A DNA stretch of 50,863 nucleotides, from assembly GCA_026706245.1 (NCBI GenBank), contig JAPOZD010000208.1, positions 1 through 50,863 on the forward strand, in the 5' to 3' direction. Shown here piece after piece: positions 4,674 through 15,330 of this stretch; positions within the stretch are counted from its first letter, which is position 1; each line of letters starts with the position of its first letter. A model generated the notes under the pieces. It was not told where the DNA came from. It worked only from the letters and a program-made list of their open reading frames with translations, and searched no databases. Source of the DNA: Alphaproteobacteria bacterium (GTDB lineage Bacteria; Pseudomonadota; Alphaproteobacteria; Bin95). The position numbers and the translations under genes were made by a program.

Positions 4674-4702
4674 TTGAGTGATTGTAAACTATAGTTTACA
4701 TT
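4674..4702 (+). promoter_or_regulatory. candidate promoter (TTGAGT-17-TACATT) enclosing a perfect 18-bp palindromic operator
   Basis: tgtaaacta/tagtttaca is a perfect palindrome at 4683-4700. The -10-like TACATT ends 6 nt before the ATG at 4709, and no SD is visible. Confidence 0.5.
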
Positions 4703-4708
4703 CCGGGC

Positions 4709-5005
4709 ATGATCGAAGTCGTCGAAAGCTCTACCTTCAAGAGGTGGCTTCGCGATTTGCGGGACCGGGGCGCGGTCGCCCGGATCAATGCAAGACTGCG
4801 GAACATATCGCTTGGAAATTTTGGCGATGCGAGGAACCTGGGCGGCGGCATATCCGAGATGCGCATTCACCACGGGCCCGGCTACCGCCTCTATTTCATG
4901 CGCGACGGGACAACCGCAGTGATGCTTTGCGGTGGCGACAAGGACAGCCAACAGCGAGACATCCCGCGCGCCAGACGCTTGGCAATCGATTGGAGGCAGG
5001 CATGA
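4709..5005 (+). CDS. addiction-module killer protein (RelE/HigB superfamily)
   Basis: 98 aa. MIEVVESSTFKRWLRDLRD...ARINARLRNISLGNFGDARNLGGGISEMRIHHGPGYRLYF...CGGDKDSQQRDI matches the 'putative addiction module killer protein' family pattern. Confidence 0.85.
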   Translation: MIEVVESSTFKRWLRDLRDRGAVARINARLRNISLGNFGDARNLGGGISEMRIHHGPGYRLYFMRDGTTAVMLCGGDKDSQQRDIPRARRLAIDWRQA

Positions 5006-5289
5006 CCGAAACCTTCACGCGATGGGACGCCGCAGAGCATCTTCATAGCAAGGAGGATGTGCGTCTCTATCTCGAAGCCTGCGCGGAGGAAGACCCGGGC
5101 GATGGCAGCCTGGTCCGCGCTGCGTTGAACGACATCGCCCGCGCACAGAACATGAGCCGTCTTGCACGGGATGCCGGCATGACTCGCGAGGGGCTCTACA
5201 AGGCGTTATCGGAGAACGGAAACCCCACCTTCGCCACCGTCATGCGGATTACCCGCGCGCTGGGAATGCAGCTGCGCTTCACGACATAG
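5002..5289 (+). CDS. addiction-module antidote protein (HTH, HigA-like)
   Basis: 95 aa. The ATG at 5002 overlaps the toxin stop (ATGA). ...LNDIARAQNMSRLARDAGMTREGLYKALSENGNPTFATVMRITRALGMQL is the typical HTH antidote signature. Confidence 0.85.
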   Translation: MTETFTRWDAAEHLHSKEDVRLYLEACAEEDPGDGSLVRAALNDIARAQNMSRLARDAGMTREGLYKALSENGNPTFATVMRITRALGMQLRFTT

Positions 5290-5822
5290 TGCAAGCGTGG
5301 GAAACAACCGGCTATGGACCCCGCATTCAAGCGCATGCGGCCGGCTCCATCCGCCCGGAGACCGCCGATGATCGGGAAGCGGTAAGGCAGCTCCTGCTGG
5401 CGACCTTTCCGACTTCCGACGAGGCACGGCTGGTGGAGCGGCTGCGCGGGGACGGGGATGCGGTCCTATCACTGGTTGCCGTCGAGGCGGAGGCGGTCGT
5501 GGGGCATGTGCTGTTTTCGCGATTGCGCGCGCCCGCCGCCGCCCTTGCCCTTGCACCGCTTGCGGTCCGCGCGGACCGGCGGCGGCGCGGCATCGGCGCT
5601 GGGCTGGTTGCAGCGGGACTCCACCGGGCGAAGCGGGAGGGCTGGCGGGCGGTCGTCGTGCTGGGCGATCCGGCCTATTACAGCCGCTTCGGCTTCCGGC
5701 CGGAAGCGGTGCGCGGCATGGCCTCCCCCTATGCCGGCCCCGCCCTGATGGGGCTCGCGCTCGCGCCGGACGGTCTGAGCGGTCCGTGCATCGAGTACGC
5801 CCCCGCCTTCGCCTCCCTGTAG
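5289..5822 (+). CDS. GNAT family N-acetyltransferase (YhbS-like)
   Basis: Core IRPETADDREAVRQLL...LVAVEAEAVVGHVLFS...LAPLAVRADRRRRGIGAGLV...VVVLGDPAYYSRFGF. The start is uncertain: the only in-frame start before IRPE is GTG 5289, which overlaps the antidote stop (TAGTG). Confidence 0.75.
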   Translation: MQAWETTGYGPRIQAHAAGSIRPETADDREAVRQLLLATFPTSDEARLVERLRGDGDAVLSLVAVEAEAVVGHVLFSRLRAPAAALALAPLAVRADRRRRGIGAGLVAAGLHRAKREGWRAVVVLGDPAYYSRFGFRPEAVRGMASPYAGPALMGLALAPDGLSGPCIEYAPAFASL

Positions 5823-7028: not shown

Positions 7029-8108
7029 ATGCCCTACGATGCCGAACGCCTGCATGAGGTTCCCGACGACCCGCTCGCCGCCATCGACTATTGCTACGAG
7101 CAGGGCTGGACCGACGGCCTGCCCGTGGTGCCGCCGGGCGCGGAGCGCGTGGAGGAGATGCTGGGCTATGAGGGCCGCCCGCCCGAGACGCCCATCGCCC
7201 GCCATCCCGCCACGGGGCTGGAATGCACCGTCCATGCTGCGGCAGTGAACGCGGTCATGGCCGGCTGCCGGCCCGAATATTTCCCGGTTCTGGTCGCGGC
7301 CTTCGAGGCCATGAACGAGCCCGGCTTCAACTTCCACGGCTCGACCGCCTCCACCGGCGGCTCCGCCCCGCTGCTGGTCGTCAGCGGCCCGGTCACCGAC
7401 GACATCCACATGAACGCGGACGTCAACCTGTTCGGCCCCGGCAACCGCGCCAACGCCACCATCGGCCGCGCCGTGCGCCTCATCCTGATGAACGTCTTCC
7501 GGATGGTCCCCGGCATTTCCGACAAATCGACCCAGGGCCATCCGGGCAAGTTCTCCTTCTGCATCGCGGAGCGCAGCCGCGGCAATCCCTGGCCGCTGCT
7601 GTGCGAGGAGCAGGGCTATCCGGAAGGTGTCAGCAGCGTCACGGTGTTCGCCGGCGGCGGCTTCTGCAATATCGAGAACCATGGCGGCAACACGCCGGAG
7701 CACATTCTGGCGACGGTGGCGGACGCCATGGCGAATTACGGCTGCATTACGCTCGGCCAGTCCGTCGTGGTGCTGGCGCCGGAGCATATGCGCATCCTCG
7801 CCGGCGCCGGCTGGACGCGCAGGCAGGCGCAGGAATACCTGTTCGCCCATGCCTGCCGCCCGGTCGAGGGCATGAAAGCCGTCGGCAAGCACCGCGACGT
7901 CGAATACGGCAGGCAGCATGGCGAGGAGGGCGCGCACCCGCTGGCGGGCGACGGCAGGTTCCACCGCGGCCTCGGCCCGGACGACATCCTGATCCTGATG
8001 GGCGGCGGCGACGCCGGCGGCCATTCAAGCTTCATCCCCTCCTGGAGCCGCGGCCGCGGCTCCCTCATGCAGTCGAAACCCATCGGCGTGTGCATCGATT
8101 GCGAATAG
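7029..8108 (+). CDS. conserved hypothetical protein (359 aa), upstream partner of the UGSC selenoprotein gene
   Basis: Long ORF with non-shadow composition ([36 protein letters not shown]...). It ends ...PIGVCIDCE, 33 nt before the next gene. I recognise no family. Confidence 0.7.
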   Translation: MPYDAERLHEVPDDPLAAIDYCYEQGWTDGLPVVPPGAERVEEMLGYEGRPPETPIARHPATGLECTVHAAAVNAVMAGCRPEYFPVLVAAFEAMNEPGFNFHGSTASTGGSAPLLVVSGPVTDDIHMNADVNLFGPGNRANATIGRAVRLILMNVFRMVPGISDKSTQGHPGKFSFCIAERSRGNPWPLLCEEQGYPEGVSSVTVFAGGGFCNIENHGGNTPEHILATVADAMANYGCITLGQSVVVLAPEHMRILAGAGWTRRQAQEYLFAHACRPVEGMKAVGKHRDVEYGRQHGEEGAHPLAGDGRFHRGLGPDDILILMGGGDAGGHSSFIPSWSRGRGSLMQSKPIGVCIDCE

Positions 8109-8141
8109 ACTGAAACCGGCAACGGACAGGAGACGACAGGC

Positions 8142-8666
8142 ATGCTTCTTTGCGACCCCACGGTTCCGGGGCCGGAGCGGAACCTCTCCCGCGCGGCGGC
8201 GCTGGCCGGGCTGGAGGGCCGGACTATCGGCCTCCTGGAGAACGGCAAGCTCAATGCGCAGCTCATGCTCCGCGAGACCGCCCGGCTCTTCGAGGAGCGG
8301 CACGGCTGCACGGTCGTGCCCGTCTGGTCCAAGTGGAACGCCAGCGCGCCCGCGCCCGAAGAGACGCTGAAGGCGGCGGCGGACAAGGTCGATTTCCTGA
8401 TAACGGGACTGGGCGACTGAGGCTCCTGTTCGACGTGCAGTTTGCATGACGGCATCAGCTTCGAGCAGCTCGGCAAGCGCGCGGCGGTCATCTGCACCGA
8501 ACCCTTCGAGGTGACGGCGCGGAACATCGCCCGGACGCTGGGCCTCCCGGACTATCCCTTCATCATGGTCGAGCATCCCATCGGCAGCCGCCGGCCGGAC
8601 GAGATCAGGGTGCTGGCCGAAGCGGCCTACCGGCAGGCCTTGCCGATCCTGACCGCGGCCGCCTGA
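8142..8666 (+). CDS. UGSC-motif selenoprotein candidate (174 codons; in-frame TGA at 8418-8420 read as selenocysteine)
   Basis: ORFs 8142..8420 and 8442..8666 share a frame, and 8421-8441 contains no stop. Read-through gives ...FLITGLGD-U-GSCSTCSLHDGISFEQLGK.... AGGAG SD lies before ATG 8142. The downstream half has only a TTG and no SD of its own. Confidence 0.7.
8431..8451 (+). promoter_or_regulatory. candidate bacterial SECIS hairpin
   Basis: 5'-cgacgugca guu ugcaugacg-3', imperfect stem (one G-U pair, one A-A mismatch). It starts 11 nt after the UGA, and the apical G/U-containing loop lies about 20-25 nt after the UGA, comparable to the fdhF-type SECIS spacing. Confidence 0.45.
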
Positions 8667-10732: not shown

Positions 10733-11638
10733 ATGACCGCCGCCGCCCCGTTGCCCGTCACCGTGGTCGGCGGCTATCTGGGCGCCGGCAAGACGACGCT
10801 CGTGAACAGCCTGCTCCGGCAGGCGGACGGCAGGCGGCTCGCCGTCATGGTCAACGAGTTCGGCGCGCTCCCCATCGACGCGAGCCTCGTCGAGGCGGCG
10901 GACGACCGGATCGTCAGCCTCACCGGCGGCTGCGTCTGCTGCAGCTACGGGGAGGACCTTGTGTCGTCGCTGGTCATGCTGGCCGCGCTGGAACCAAGGC
11001 CGGACCATGTGTTGCTGGAGGCGAGCGGCGTCGCCTTTCCGGGCGCCATCGCCGGCACGGTCGGCCTGCTGCAGGACTTCGCGCTGGACGGCGCGGTGGT
11101 GCTGGCCGACGCCGAGACCGTGCGCGGCCGCGCCGGGGACCGCTATCTCGGCAGCACCGTCCGCCGGCAGCTGGCGGAGGCGGACCTCATCCTGCTCAAC
11201 AAGTGCGACCTCGCGGGCGATGCCGTCGCGGTCGAAGCCTGGCTCGGCGAAACGGCGCCGGGCGCAAGGGTCGTGCGCACGGTGCGCTCCGAGGCACCCA
11301 TAGACATCGTGCTGGGCGCCTGGACCGGCCGCGCCGCCCTGCCCGCAGCCGGCGGTCCGTTCGACCACACCGACGGCTACGCAACGGCCATGCTCGACCC
11401 GCCCGAAGGCGCCGAACCGGAAGCCCTCGCCCGCATCCTCGCCGACCCCGCCCACGGCCTGCTGCGCGCCAAGGGCTTCCTGCGCCGCCCCGGCGGCGGC
11501 ACGGCCGCCATCCAGACTGTCGGCAACCGCTGGACGGTCTCGGACGCGCCCCCTGATGCGCCGACGGGCCTCGTCTGCATCGGCCTCGAAGCCCGCACGG
11601 ACTTCGAGGCACTACGGCGGGCGACCCGCAGCCTTTGA
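10733..11638 (+). CDS. CobW/COG0523-family G3E GTPase (metallochaperone-like)
   Basis: 301 aa. P-loop GGYLGAGKTTLVN, metal motif GGCVCCS, LLNKCDL, and the CobW C-terminal domain pattern (LRAKGFL...). Confidence 0.85.
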   Translation: MTAAAPLPVTVVGGYLGAGKTTLVNSLLRQADGRRLAVMVNEFGALPIDASLVEAADDRIVSLTGGCVCCSYGEDLVSSLVMLAALEPRPDHVLLEASGVAFPGAIAGTVGLLQDFALDGAVVLADAETVRGRAGDRYLGSTVRRQLAEADLILLNKCDLAGDAVAVEAWLGETAPGARVVRTVRSEAPIDIVLGAWTGRAALPAAGGPFDHTDGYATAMLDPPEGAEPEALARILADPAHGLLRAKGFLRRPGGGTAAIQTVGNRWTVSDAPPDAPTGLVCIGLEARTDFEALRRATRSL

Positions 11639-11697: not shown

Positions 11698-14600
11698 ATG
11701 AGCGATTCGGATAGGCAGGCCGAACGGCCCGAGCACAGCATCGACGCCGCTGAAGTCGAGGCTTTCATCGCCCGCTGGGAGAAGTCCGGAGGCTCGGAAT
11801 CGGCGAATTTCCAGATGTTCGCCGCCGAGTTCTGCGGCCTGCTCGGCCTGCCGAATCCCGACCCCTCGGAGGAGCGGAACGAATATAACGACTACACCTT
11901 CGAGCGGCGCATCGACTTCAAGCATGACGACAACACCACAAGCCCCGGAAGGATAGACCTTTACCGGCGCGACTGCTTCGTCATGGAGGCGAAGCAGTCC
12001 GCCAAGCGGAGAGCGAAGAAGGCCGCCGACCCCCGCCAGACGGACATACTTCCAGAAGACGCCATGCAGGCGAAGGCCGGCGCGGCGGTGCGCGGCACGC
12101 GCGGCTGGGACCGGACGATGCGCGCCGCCAAGCGGCAGGCGGAAGATTACGCCCGCGCCCTGCCGGCGGAGCACGGTTGGCCGCCTTTCATCGTGGTTAT
12201 CGATGTCGGCCATGTCTTCGAGGTCTATGCGGACTTCTCCGGCCAAGGGAAGAACTACGCCCAATTCCCGGACCGGGAGGGCTATCGCATTCCCCTTTCG
12301 GGCCTGCGCGACCCGGAAGTCCGCGCCCGGCTTCGGGCGGTCTGGACCGACCCGCTCTCGCTCGACCCCGCCCGGCGGAGCGCCGAGGTCACGCGCGACA
12401 TCGCCGCACGCCTCGCCCGCATCGCCCGCAGCCTGGAAGACAGGGGACGCCACCCGGAGGAAGTCGCCGAATTCCTCATGCGCTGCCTGTTCACCATGTT
12501 CGCCGAGGATGTGGGCCTGCTGCCGGAGAAAGGCTTCGAGGACCTGCTGGGGCAGATGGTCGAGACGCCGCAGCATTTCGCCCCGGCGCTGGAGAATCTG
12601 TGGAAGGTTATGGACGAGGGCGGCTACGCCCCGAACCTGAACGCGGTGGTGAAACGCTTCAACGGCGCGCTGTTCCGCAACCGCAGGGCGATTCCGCTGG
12701 AAGCGGGCGAAATCCGTGAACTCCATATCGCCGCCGGACGCGACTGGCGCCATGTGGAGCCGGCCATTTTCGGCGCGCTATTGGAACGCGCGCTGGATGA
12801 CCGAAATCGCGCGGAACTAGGCGCGCATTACACGCCGCGCGCCTATGTGGAGCGGCTGGTCGTGCCGGTGATTATCGAGCCGCTGCGCGCCGACTGGGAA
12901 GCGGCGCTGGCCGAGGCCCATGCGCTGGACGAAGCGGGGGACCGCAGCGCCGCGCTCGGAAGGGTCAAGGACTTTCACCACAGGCTCTGCACGACGCGCG
13001 TGCTGGACCCGGCCTGCGGCACCGGCAATTTCCTCTATGTCTCGCTGGAATTGATGAAGCGGCTCGAAGGCGAGGTGCTGGACGCGCTGGAGGGGCTGGG
13101 CGAGGACGCGCCCCGCTTCGTGATGGAGGGGGAGACCGTCGGCCCGCGCCAATTCCACGGCCTCGAACTCAACCCCCGCGCCGTCGCCATCGCCGATCTG
13201 GTGCTGTGGATCGGCTATCTGAAATGGCAGCTCCGCACCCTGCCGCCCGACCGCCTCTCCGAACCGGTGCTGCACGCCTACGGCACGATCCGGGAGCAGG
13301 ATGCGGTTCTGGCCTGGGACAGGCAGGAGCTTCTTTGCGACGAAAACGGCAAGCCGCTTTCCCGCTGGGACGGCGTGACCGTGAAGCTGCATCCGATCAC
13401 CGGGGAGGAGGTTCCCGATCCCGACGCGCAAGTGGAACTCTACCGCTACGAGAACCCGCGCCCGGCCGCGTGGCCGGAGGCGGAATTCGTTGTCGGCAAC
13501 CCGCCTTTCATCGGCGGCAAGGACATGCGCAACAGGCTGGGCGACGGCTACGCCGAAGCCTGTTGGGAGGCTCGCAAGAAGGTTCCCGGCGGCGCGGACT
13601 TCGTCATGCACTTCTGGGACGAGGCCGCAACGCGCCTGCTGCGGAAGCCGAAGAAAGGGCAAACGAACCCGCTGCGCCGCTTCGGCTTCATCACCACCAA
13701 TTCGGTGACGCAGACCTTCTCCCGGCGCGTGATCGAGCGGCATATGGGGGCGAAGGAGCCGCTGGCGCTCGCTTACGCCGTGCCGGACCACCCGTGGCTG
13801 AAGGCGGCGGACAAGGCGGCGGTGCGCATCGCCATGACCGTCGCCGTGCGCGGCGACGGCGAAGGCAGGCTTGCGGCCGTCGAGCGGGAAGACGGGCTCG
13901 ACACCGATACGCCGCTCGTCGAACTGCGGGAGCGGACAGGCAAAATTGCCGGCAACCTGAAGGTGGGCGCGGACATAGTGGCCGTCCGGCCGCTGCTGGC
14001 GAACGATCTGATTGCTGGTCGGGGCGTACAGCTATTGGGGTCGGGCTTTATCGTCACGCCGCAACAGGCCGGGGCGCTCGGCCTTGGCGCGACGCTGGGG
14101 CTGGAAAAGCACATCCTGCCCTACCGCAACGGCCAGGACCTCGCCCGGCATCCACGCGGCGTCATGGTTATCGACCTGTACCCGCTGGCGGCGGACGAAG
14201 TGCGGGAGCGGTTCCCGAAGGTTTACCAGCATGTTCTCGACCGGGTGAAGCCGGAGCGGGACCAGAACAACCGCCAAACCTATCGCGATAACTGGTGGAT
14301 TTTCGGCGAACCGCGCTCGGATTTGAGGCCGGTTCTGGAGCCGTTGGACCGCTATATCGCGACGGTAGAAACATCGAAGCATCGATTCTTCCAGTTTCTC
14401 GATGCTAATGTTCGGCCGGACAACATGCTGGTTTGTTTTGGTTCGGATAACGGCGGTTTTCTGGCAGCTCTATCTTCCCGGCTGCATATATCGTGGATGT
14501 TGTCATTGGGCGGTACGCTTGAAGATCGTCCCCGCTACAACAAGACCAGAATCCTCGACACATTTCCCTTTCCCGCATTTACCGAAGGCTCGAAGTCCGG

Positions 14601-15330
14601 GCGACTGCTTGCCGACCTGGGCGAACGCCTCGACAGCTTTCGCAAGGAGCGGCTTGCCGAGCACGATTTCCTCACCATGACCTCGCTTTACAATGTGCTG
14701 GAGCGGGTGCGGGAGCTTGAGAACGGTTGCGAGGTTCGGGCTCTCACGCCGAAGGAACGGGACATCCACGAAGCCGGGCTGGTCTCGGTGCTCAAGGAAA
14801 TCCACGACGATATCGACCGCGCGGTCTTCGAGGCTTACGGCTGGGCCGACCTCGCGCCTGCGCTGGCGGGCCTGCCGGGCGCGACGACGCCCTCGCCGCA
14901 CAAGACGCCGGAACAGGAGGAGGCGGAGGAGGAATTGCTTGCCCGCCTCGTCGCGCTGAACCGGGAGCGGGCGGAAGAGGAGCAGGCCGGTACGGTCCGC
15001 TGGCTCAGGCCGGACTACCAGATACCGAAGCTCGCCCACAAGGCGAAAGGCCATCAGGAGATAGCGGATCTCGTCGCCCCGGAGGCCGCCGCCGCCAGGC
15101 CCGCATGGCCGAGGGAAGACCTGGACCGCATCCGTGCGCTGCGCTCCATGCTGGACCGCGCCGCCACCCCTGCTGGCGCGGCGGCGTTGAGCGCGGCGTT
15201 CAAGGGCCGCGATTCCGCCGCGCGCCGCAAGGCAGTGGAAAAGGCCCTCGAAACCCTCGCCGCCGCCGGCGCGGCCCAAAGGGCGGGCGACGGGTCGGAC
15301 GGCGAAAGCCGCTATTTCATCCCCCGGTAA
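11698..15330 (+). CDS. MmeI-like Type IIL/IIG restriction-modification fusion enzyme (N-terminal PD-ExK nuclease + N6-adenine DNA methyltransferase + TRD + long C-terminal tail)
   Basis: 1210 aa. GRIDLYRRDCFVMEAKQS has D-x9-E-x-K spacing as in MmeI. Also HYTPRAYV, motif I VLDPACGTGNFL, motif IV VVGNPPFIGG, and the C-terminal pattern ...RYNKTRILDTFPFP...LYNVLE. No separate R, M or S genes are adjacent. Confidence 0.8.
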   Translation: MSDSDRQAERPEHSIDAAEVEAFIARWEKSGGSESANFQMFAAEFCGLLGLPNPDPSEERNEYNDYTFERRIDFKHDDNTTSPGRIDLYRRDCFVMEAKQSAKRRAKKAADPRQTDILPEDAMQAKAGAAVRGTRGWDRTMRAAKRQAEDYARALPAEHGWPPFIVVIDVGHVFEVYADFSGQGKNYAQFPDREGYRIPLSGLRDPEVRARLRAVWTDPLSLDPARRSAEVTRDIAARLARIARSLEDRGRHPEEVAEFLMRCLFTMFAEDVGLLPEKGFEDLLGQMVETPQHFAPALENLWKVMDEGGYAPNLNAVVKRFNGALFRNRRAIPLEAGEIRELHIAAGRDWRHVEPAIFGALLERALDDRNRAELGAHYTPRAYVERLVVPVIIEPLRADWEAALAEAHALDEAGDRSAALGRVKDFHHRLCTTRVLDPACGTGNFLYVSLELMKRLEGEVLDALEGLGEDAPRFVMEGETVGPRQFHGLELNPRAVAIADLVLWIGYLKWQLRTLPPDRLSEPVLHAYGTIREQDAVLAWDRQELLCDENGKPLSRWDGVTVKLHPITGEEVPDPDAQVELYRYENPRPAAWPEAEFVVGNPPFIGGKDMRNRLGDGYAEACWEARKKVPGGADFVMHFWDEAATRLLRKPKKGQTNPLRRFGFITTNSVTQTFSRRVIERHMGAKEPLALAYAVPDHPWLKAADKAAVRIAMTVAVRGDGEGRLAAVEREDGLDTDTPLVELRERTGKIAGNLKVGADIVAVRPLLANDLIAGRGVQLLGSGFIVTPQQAGALGLGATLGLEKHILPYRNGQDLARHPRGVMVIDLYPLAADEVRERFPKVYQHVLDRVKPERDQNNRQTYRDNWWIFGEPRSDLRPVLEPLDRYIATVETSKHRFFQFLDANVRPDNMLVCFGSDNGGFLAALSSRLHISWMLSLGGTLEDRPRYNKTRILDTFPFPAFTEGSKSGRLLADLGERLDSFRKERLAEHDFLTMTSLYNVLERVRELENGCEVRALTPKERDIHEAGLVSVLKEIHDDIDRAVFEAYGWADLAPALAGLPGATTPSPHKTPEQEEAEEELLARLVALNRERAEEEQAGTVRWLRPDYQIPKLAHKAKGHQEIADLVAPEAAAARPAWPREDLDRIRALRSMLDRAATPAGAAALSAAFKGRDSAARRKAVEKALETLAAAGAAQRAGDGSDGESRYFIPR

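Follow-up and report, generated by a model that had tools for sequence, protein, structure and literature searches.

We report that positions 8142-8666 of a 50,863-nucleotide stretch of DNA from Alphaproteobacteria bacterium (forward strand of contig JAPOZD010000208.1, assembly GCA_026706245.1; the whole stretch is referred to here as the window) are almost certainly one selenoprotein gene of the UGSC family, which an in-frame TGA divides into two apparent open reading frames (ORFs). The region holds one continuous frame under selection, belongs to the UGSC family, has selenocysteine (Sec) or cysteine at one and the same column of its homologues, and contains a constrained, covarying hairpin with the geometry of a selenocysteine insertion sequence (SECIS). 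The best overall explanation, which we consider very likely, is that the UGA is decoded as Sec with the help of this SECIS hairpin and that the product is the redox subunit of a two-protein module. The gene belongs to an already known family defined by hidden Markov models (HMMs), so the finding itself is confirmatory. Its elements are as follows.

8142-8666, forward strand: gene, almost certainly of a UGSC-family selenoprotein, with 174 codons including Sec93, then the stop TGA at 8664-8666
8418-8420, forward strand: in-frame UGA, very probably read as Sec (U93), in the motif G-D-U-G-S-C-S-T-C
8128-8132, forward strand: Shine-Dalgarno sequence AGGAG, read from the sequence, with a 9-nt spacer to the ATG at 8142

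The TGA at 8418-8420 is the sole interruption between the ORFs at 8142-8420 and 8421-8666, which share one frame, and the stretch that follows it (8421-8663) is free of stops in the frame of the ATG at 8142. The initial annotation had claimed that two same-frame ORFs were split by a UGA and would read through to 174 codons, and both the coordinates and the translation agree. The conceptual product has 174 residues (...VDFLITGLGD-U-GSCSTCSLHDGISFEQ..., with the motif ...GLGD-U-GSCSTCSLHD...), and the peptide across the Sec column reads VDFLITGLGD-U-GSCSTCSLHDGISFEQLGK. The G+C content at third codon positions (GC3) is a strong coding indicator at a base composition of 69% G+C, which is that of the window, and it is 0.87 upstream and 0.90 downstream of the TGA in the same frame. 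The sequence likewise bears out the claim that the downstream half has no Shine-Dalgarno sequence of its own and only a TTG, whereas the ATG at 8142 has AGGAG. As separate observations, an overlapping ORF lies at 8150-8449 (forward strand) in the +2 frame relative to the UGSC gene, and the UGSC calls of two close relatives (P0020 and P0021, on ENA contigs of 65 and 41 kb) switch to the +2 frame and end at a TGA within ..GCATGAC..; these frame switches are most likely indel errors of long-read metagenome-assembled genomes (MAGs) and not real frameshifts.

With U replaced by C, the fused product scores 129.4 bits against NCBIfam NF041046, 'UGSC family (seleno)protein' (profile positions 1-146 of 147), a narrow margin over the curated cut-off of 125, and 162.2 bits against Pfam PF24696, 'UGSC' (cut-off 25; profile positions 3-171 of 172). 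The assignment to the UGSC family made in the initial annotation is thus upheld by both curated models. The conserved core of the family spans the UGA junction, and G94, S95, C96 and S97 are invariant in the alignment of homologues (A2), where the window reads D-U-G-S-C. The 'UGSC-containing protein' was first noted in 2007 and was also reported in Hyphomonas neptunium (PMC1976440), and in the Global Ocean Sampling (GOS) metagenomes few predicted selenoprotein families were as abundant as UGSC, with 255 Sec forms, 21 Cys forms and the motif UxxC (PMC2398784). A 2026 review still lists the family as functionally uncharacterised (PMC13188914). Compared with the UGSC-containing protein of Zhang & Gladyshev 2007/2008 (for example ABI76733.1 of Hyphomonas neptunium), the window gene shares the U-G-S-C motif, the length and the alternation of Sec and Cys, and no feature sets it apart from the family, of which it is an ordinary alphaproteobacterial member.

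The homologues were collected by a search of 5.8 billion proteins and by a scan of a genome collection with one genome per species, which gave 382 relatives, from which 80 loci were kept in addition to the window. In the protein search, close homologues (60-70% identity) were called as fragments of 95-100 aa that stop exactly at ...GLGD, and distant ones (35-44% identity) were full-length with GD-C-GSCS and carried the NCBI name 'UGSC family (seleno)protein'. The Cys forms, 179-201 aa long, are called as one gene. At the Sec/Cys column, the 80 loci and the window together have TGA in 43 cases and TGC (Cys) in 38, distributed as follows.

37 alphaproteobacterial loci (uncultured Alphaproteobacteria, Reyranella, Hyphomicrobiaceae and Rhodospirillaceae; 66-97% identity): TGA in 37 of 37
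5 actinobacterial loci (4 Solirubrobacterales and 1 Actinophytocola): TGA
38 actinobacterial loci: TGC (Cys)
the window: TGA

The alphaproteobacterial orthologues align without gaps across all 174 codons, with the frame open apart from the TGA, and the ratio of nonsynonymous to synonymous substitution (dN/dS) after the UGA is 0.11-0.24 at dS 0.4-1.1 in ten divergent pairs, no higher than the values before it. Comparative work by standard recognises a selenoprotein by just such a pattern, a stop with selected codons behind it at a position that Cys occupies in homologues. Since the 81 codons after the UGA are under purifying selection and homologues have Cys at the column, a pseudogene, a split gene and an error of sequencing are effectively excluded. 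The check that had been suggested on homologues therefore came out in favour of Sec, as each of these is one polypeptide that carries Cys or Sec in the UGA column. The third Cys of U-x-x-C-x-x-C is missing in the Actinomycetota homologues, which have U/C-G-S-C-S-A-S/A. The split annotation also recurs on further alphaproteobacterial contigs (L081 5093-5614, L082 1914-2435 and L083 1484-2005), as calls of 92 aa and 59 or 64 aa that both match PF24696. Such split calls are a systematic mis-annotation of the family, and the literature describes the same fate for selenoprotein genes, which are wrongly called as shortened or divided ORFs. A correct annotation of the window would join the two short ORFs in a single Sec-containing coding sequence (CDS).

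Directly after the UGA, the mRNA can form a hairpin with the following parts.

8427-8454, forward strand: SECIS-type hairpin, with an upper stem of 8434-8439 (CGUGCA) and 8443-8448 (UGCAUG) and an apical loop GUU at 8440-8442
8427-8429 and 8431-8432, forward strand: lower stem of the hairpin, pairing with 8450-8454, with U8430 bulged and A8433/A8449 unpaired

The apical loop GUU starts 19 nt after the UGA (that is, at +20-22), the upper stem has 6 bp, and the minimum free energy (MFE) is -8.5 kcal/mol for 8427-8462. The published consensus for bacterial SECIS elements (bSECIS) is a loop of 3-9 nt that has a G among its first two nucleotides and lies 16-37 nt from the UGA, an upper stem of 4-16 bp and an MFE of at most -7.5 kcal/mol (PMC13188914), and the hairpin agrees with it throughout (3-nt loop, 6-bp stem, G first, 19-nt spacing, -8.5 kcal/mol). 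Codons 98-100 (ACG TGC AGT for Thr-Cys-Ser, which are 4-, 2- and 6-fold degenerate) are invariant in 37 distinct alphaproteobacterial CDS; the synonymous entropy at neighbouring conserved residues is 1-1.9 bits, and over the five codons of TCSLH it falls to its minimum within the gene, 0.32 compared with a gene mean of 1.0. Within the hairpin, AGT, TTG and CAT are retained although they are rare codons for a gene of GC3 ~0.9, and changes are limited to the third loop base (U/C) and a switch from G.U to G-C. Other lineages keep a hairpin at the same offset, as in Actinophytocola (GGCCA-GUU-UGGCC, which amounts to two compensatory pairs), in Solirubrobacterales (CGUCGGC-GGUC-GCCGACG) and, with a different sequence, in Reyranella. 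In an alignment of 15 sequences, 92.9% of the cells were paired, compared with 12-46% when the pairing partners were slid, and 3 pairs had changes on both sides, a number reached in 2 of 500 shuffles. Covariation, synonymous constraint and agreement with the bSECIS consensus together indicate that the hairpin with SECIS geometry claimed at 8431-8451 is real and is part of the slightly longer structure at 8427-8454.

A likeness to the SECIS of E. coli fdhF, whose sequence was confirmed against 5,419 E. coli genomes, is also apparent. In both genes the hairpin lies in the coding region directly 3' of the Sec UGA and has a bulged U in its lower part. The fdhF hairpin has UGCA/UGCA arms and a loop GGUC at +19-22; the window hairpin has UGCA arms as well and its loop GUU at +20-22, with the 3' arm at +23-26 in both. 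Both apical loops begin with G, followed by U or G. The window differs from fdhF in having a loop of 3 nt (GUU) instead of 4 nt (GGUC) and in the sequence of the lower stem.

The UGSC gene is accompanied by a second gene that encodes its putative partner.

7029-8108, forward strand: partner gene for an uncharacterised protein of 359 aa, GC3 0.89, with the stop TAG at 8106-8108 and a gap of 33 nt to the start codon of UGSC

The genomic association between UGSC and the 359-aa protein is obligate and fusion of the two is frequent. A partner homologue adjoins UGSC in 79 of the 80 loci, upstream in Alphaproteobacteria and downstream in Actinomycetota, and the stop and start codons of the two genes often overlap. 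When we sampled from the partner side, UGSC was adjacent in all five places, and the alphaproteobacterial UGSC gene was again split into calls of 92 aa and 59/64 aa. The partner family is very large; it forms at least 7,983 clusters at 90% identity, each of which bears the name 'hypothetical protein', and has 4,898 representatives at 50% identity. UGSC sequence is present in about 37 of 150 partner-family representatives (~25%), in both orders; about 10 of these are complete UGSC-partner fusions and about 22 start directly behind the Sec column, in keeping with Sec forms whose gene call begins past the UGA. Four partner-UGSC fusions stop one residue short of the Sec column. A 2008 paper mentions a 'UGSC/Unknown_1' fusion, and Unknown_1 is probably the same domain as the 359-aa protein. 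A further fusion, P0334 (695 aa), joins the partner domain (15-343) to a low-molecular-weight thioredoxin reductase (TrxR)-like flavoprotein of the Pyr_redox_2 type with a CAVC motif, which hints at the electron source of the module. Adjacency and natural fusions make a functional or physical partnership of UGSC with the 359-aa protein likely.

Three cysteines of the partner are invariant or nearly so across both phyla, namely Cys22, Cys80 (NAxMAGC; ..NAVMAGC.. in the window) and Cys178 (..FCIAE..). Neither Pfam, NCBIfam nor the PDB yielded a sequence match to the 359-aa protein, even at permissive thresholds. Its AlphaFold model has a predicted local distance difference test (pLDDT) score of 81.8 and a predicted template modelling (pTM) score of 0.85. 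The class I (Fe-S) fumarate hydratase alpha subunit was tried as an identity and rejected; the best Foldseek match, 7xky_A, has E = 4e-4 but a template modelling (TM) score of 0.23 and a root-mean-square deviation of 12.5, and this reading also found 0 matches in a PDB-sequence profile search and no Pfam match.

For the UGSC protein itself, the structure rests on an AlphaFold2 model of a natural Cys-form homologue, 41% identical to the window protein, built from an 11-sequence alignment (pLDDT 87.9, pTM 0.82). The model is made up of five beta-alpha units, and its Cys/Sec residue comes immediately behind strand 3, where helix 3 has its N-terminus. A Foldseek search of the PDB with this model returned only generic flavodoxin-like or Rossmann-like domains with TM scores of about 0.45; neither thioredoxins nor GrdB/PrdB were among the matches. 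When the PDB was searched with the UGSC protein by sequence and by profile, no meaningful match came up. A thioredoxin (Trx)-like fold had been suggested as likely for UGSC (PMC2398784) and is not supported here, as the five beta-alpha units of the model are parallel and flavodoxin/Rossmann-like; the UGSC protein is accordingly predicted to be a small alpha/beta domain of this type. With the Trx-like, peroxiredoxin (Prx)-like and SelW-like UxxC/CxxU selenoproteins it shares the small size, a U-x-x-C at the N-terminus of a helix after a beta-strand and the existence of Cys homologues, and the TrxR-like reductase fused to its partner is a further likeness. It differs from them in its predicted topology and in its obligate coupling to the 359-aa protein. 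A U-x-x-C at the N-terminus of a helix is typical of redox-active sites, and because of this position in the model we lean towards a selenenylsulfide redox couple between Sec93 and Cys96 (U-G-S-C).

In the mechanism that we propose, the UGA at 8418-8420 would be decoded as Sec during translation because the mRNA downstream folds into the bacterial SECIS hairpin at 8427-8454. The hairpin would recruit SelB-GTP-Sec-tRNA(Sec), and translation would continue past the UGA to the true stop at 8664-8666. On its flavodoxin-like carrier domain, the Sec93/Cys96 couple may exchange reducing equivalents with the conserved cysteines of the partner, such that UGSC would be the redox subunit and the 359-aa protein, with its three conserved cysteines, probably the catalytic or substrate-binding part. 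The module would probably be re-reduced by a flavoprotein of the thioredoxin reductase type, and it may act in small-molecule metabolism and not in general antioxidant defence. That UGSC and its partner form an undescribed two-component seleno-/thiol enzyme, in which the carrier domain reduces a catalytic subunit of novel fold acting on a small-molecule substrate, is a proposal for which we see the balance as even.

Several observations weigh against the reading of the gene as a Sec-decoding subunit of such a module. Neither selA, selB, selD, tRNA-Sec nor any other tRNA gene was found within the 50.8-kb window, and tRNA-Sec was not found in 33 related loci of 12 kb; given the evolutionary evidence in the sequences, the absence of the Sec machinery from the genome is nonetheless judged very unlikely. 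In the RNA-fold check proposed by the initial annotation, the hairpin forms at the energy given above but the folding energy of 8412-8480 is no better than that of shuffles (z = 0.31). Such a z is uninformative in a gene of 69% GC and, as the energy alone is not significant, we took the support for the hairpin from the comparative data. The hairpin energy also does not separate the actinobacterial TGC genes (mean -13.4 kcal/mol) from the TGA genes (-13.4 to -15.4 kcal/mol). Many of the Cys-form actinobacterial genes (L038-L080) can fold an equivalent hairpin at about +13 to +31 nt after the TGC, for example GUCGGC-GGUC-GCCGAC in L053 and L054, which could be either a fossil SECIS left after conversion of Sec to Cys or a by-product of the self-complementary, high-GC codons for S-A-V-A-D. 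A search of the whole window with Rfam at gathering thresholds gave no match, so no family covers the hairpin. With respect to the module, Foldseek found no convincing relative of the partner model in the PDB; the partnership itself is deduced from adjacency and fusions. Tight co-transcription of the two genes is not universal either, because the closest relatives carry an insert of ~820 bp between them (L001:5117-6000, and also L002, L003, L005, L007, L008, L010 and L015). Finally, reviews describe the UGSC family as known from bioinformatics only. As an observation on the insert itself, it contains two small ORFs that resemble a VapB (RHH)/VapC (PIN) toxin-antitoxin pair, and the window, with its 33-nt gap, lacks it.

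Among the other explanations, it is improbable, although slightly less so than the rest, that UGSC is a divergent relative of GrdB/PrdB, the selenoprotein B of glycine, betaine or D-proline reductase, with the partner as the pyruvoyl proprotein GrdE/PrdA. The U-G-S-C-S-T-C of the window protein, the larger partner and the metabolic gene context speak for it as a functional analogy only, and GrdB/PrdB (PF07355) has a U-x-x-C(-x-x-C) motif and a second, larger protein in substrate reduction. No similarity of sequence or fold was detected, however. PF07355 (GRDB) matched neither the window protein (E<=0.01) nor the Cys homologue (E<=1), the Foldseek matches contain no GrdB/PrdB chain, and the third Cys is not conserved in Actinomycetota. 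The partner is without a Pfam match, and the organisms are mostly aerobic Alphaproteobacteria and Actinomycetota, a lifestyle different from that of Stickland fermenters. The likeness to glycine-reductase selenoprotein B that the initial annotation drew from the motif is therefore not supported.

It is more improbable still that the UGA is read through but not as Sec, either by reassignment of TGA to Trp or Gly or by near-cognate suppression with Trp or Cys. Two homologues in the protein search carry W at the Sec column, so some pipelines did assume that TGA encodes Trp. In a scan of the window on its two strands that required 40-50 codons of coding-like composition on each flank of a TGA, the TGA at 8418-8420 was the only one in the 50.8 kb with a coding signature on both sides. 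Because only this one was found, and because TGA also ends the UGSC gene itself, TGA is a normal stop in the window. Against reassignment or suppression it also counts that homologues have Cys, which is Sec with sulfur in place of selenium, at the aligned position, that the codon is followed by the constrained hairpin of SECIS geometry, and that the family is catalogued as a selenoprotein family.

There is even less to be said for a genuine stop, with a 92-aa protein and 81 downstream codons that would be either a separate gene starting at TTG 8442 or a decaying remnant. Gene callers do annotate proteins of 92 aa and 59/64 aa in many assemblies, both matching PF24696, but the TGA and the downstream frame are kept free of indels in the 37 orthologues at the low dN/dS given above. 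The Cys homologues are single polypeptides and the conserved core of the family crosses the junction; the TTG, moreover, is without a Shine-Dalgarno sequence and sits within the hairpin, at the boundary of its loop and stem. An error of sequencing or assembly that turned TGC (Cys) into TGA is hardly credible. A single base would suffice, and some related long-read MAGs (P0020, P0021) carry indels in the gene, but 42 loci that were assembled independently, in different studies and with different technologies, have TGA in exactly this column.

With Sec decoding in a two-protein module as the preferred reading, the interest of the locus lies mainly in the module, in which adjacency and fusions in both orders tie an orphan selenoprotein family of high abundance to a very large unannotated family. 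The two-gene unit is genetically testable, as the Cys-form carriers Amycolatopsis and Georgenia are cultured and Hyphomonas neptunium is a carrier of the Sec form. If the proposal of a two-component enzyme is true, the enzyme would occur widely among Alphaproteobacteria and Actinomycetota of water and soil, in thousands of sequence clusters. Since few predicted selenoproteins of surface waters are as abundant as UGSC, a function would then also be found for a major sink of biological selenium.

Beyond the partner, no third gene is conserved among the neighbours of the UGSC-partner loci, and the catabolic neighbours are lineage-specific. In Alphaproteobacteria they encode an enolase-superfamily enzyme (MR_MLE), Amidohydro_3 and TctC, with CobW in close relatives; in actinobacteria they encode a zinc-dependent alcohol dehydrogenase (Zn-ADH), an aldehyde dehydrogenase, Amidohydro_2, a short-chain dehydrogenase/reductase (SDR), a luciferase-like monooxygenase, a CoA-transferase and an amidase. 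In the window, a CobW/ZigA-type metallochaperone GTPase is encoded two genes downstream of UGSC (10733-11638, forward strand) and has a sub-threshold match to the NCBIfam model 'CobW-related selenoprotein' (46.9 bits against a threshold of 180); it is not a selenoprotein here because it has no in-frame TGA. Further along, 11698-15330 (forward strand) encodes a 1,210-aa MmeI-like type IIL restriction-modification protein (Pfam MmeI_N, MmeI_hel, MmeI_Mtase and MmeI_TRD), which looks like a strain-specific island, as the close relatives L001 and L006 lack it in their syntenic region. On the other side of the locus, a HigA-like 'addiction module antidote' helix-turn-helix protein (4678-5289, forward strand) and a GNAT acetyltransferase (5289-5822, forward strand) are present in only a few close relatives, and this pair is another small variable insert near the locus.

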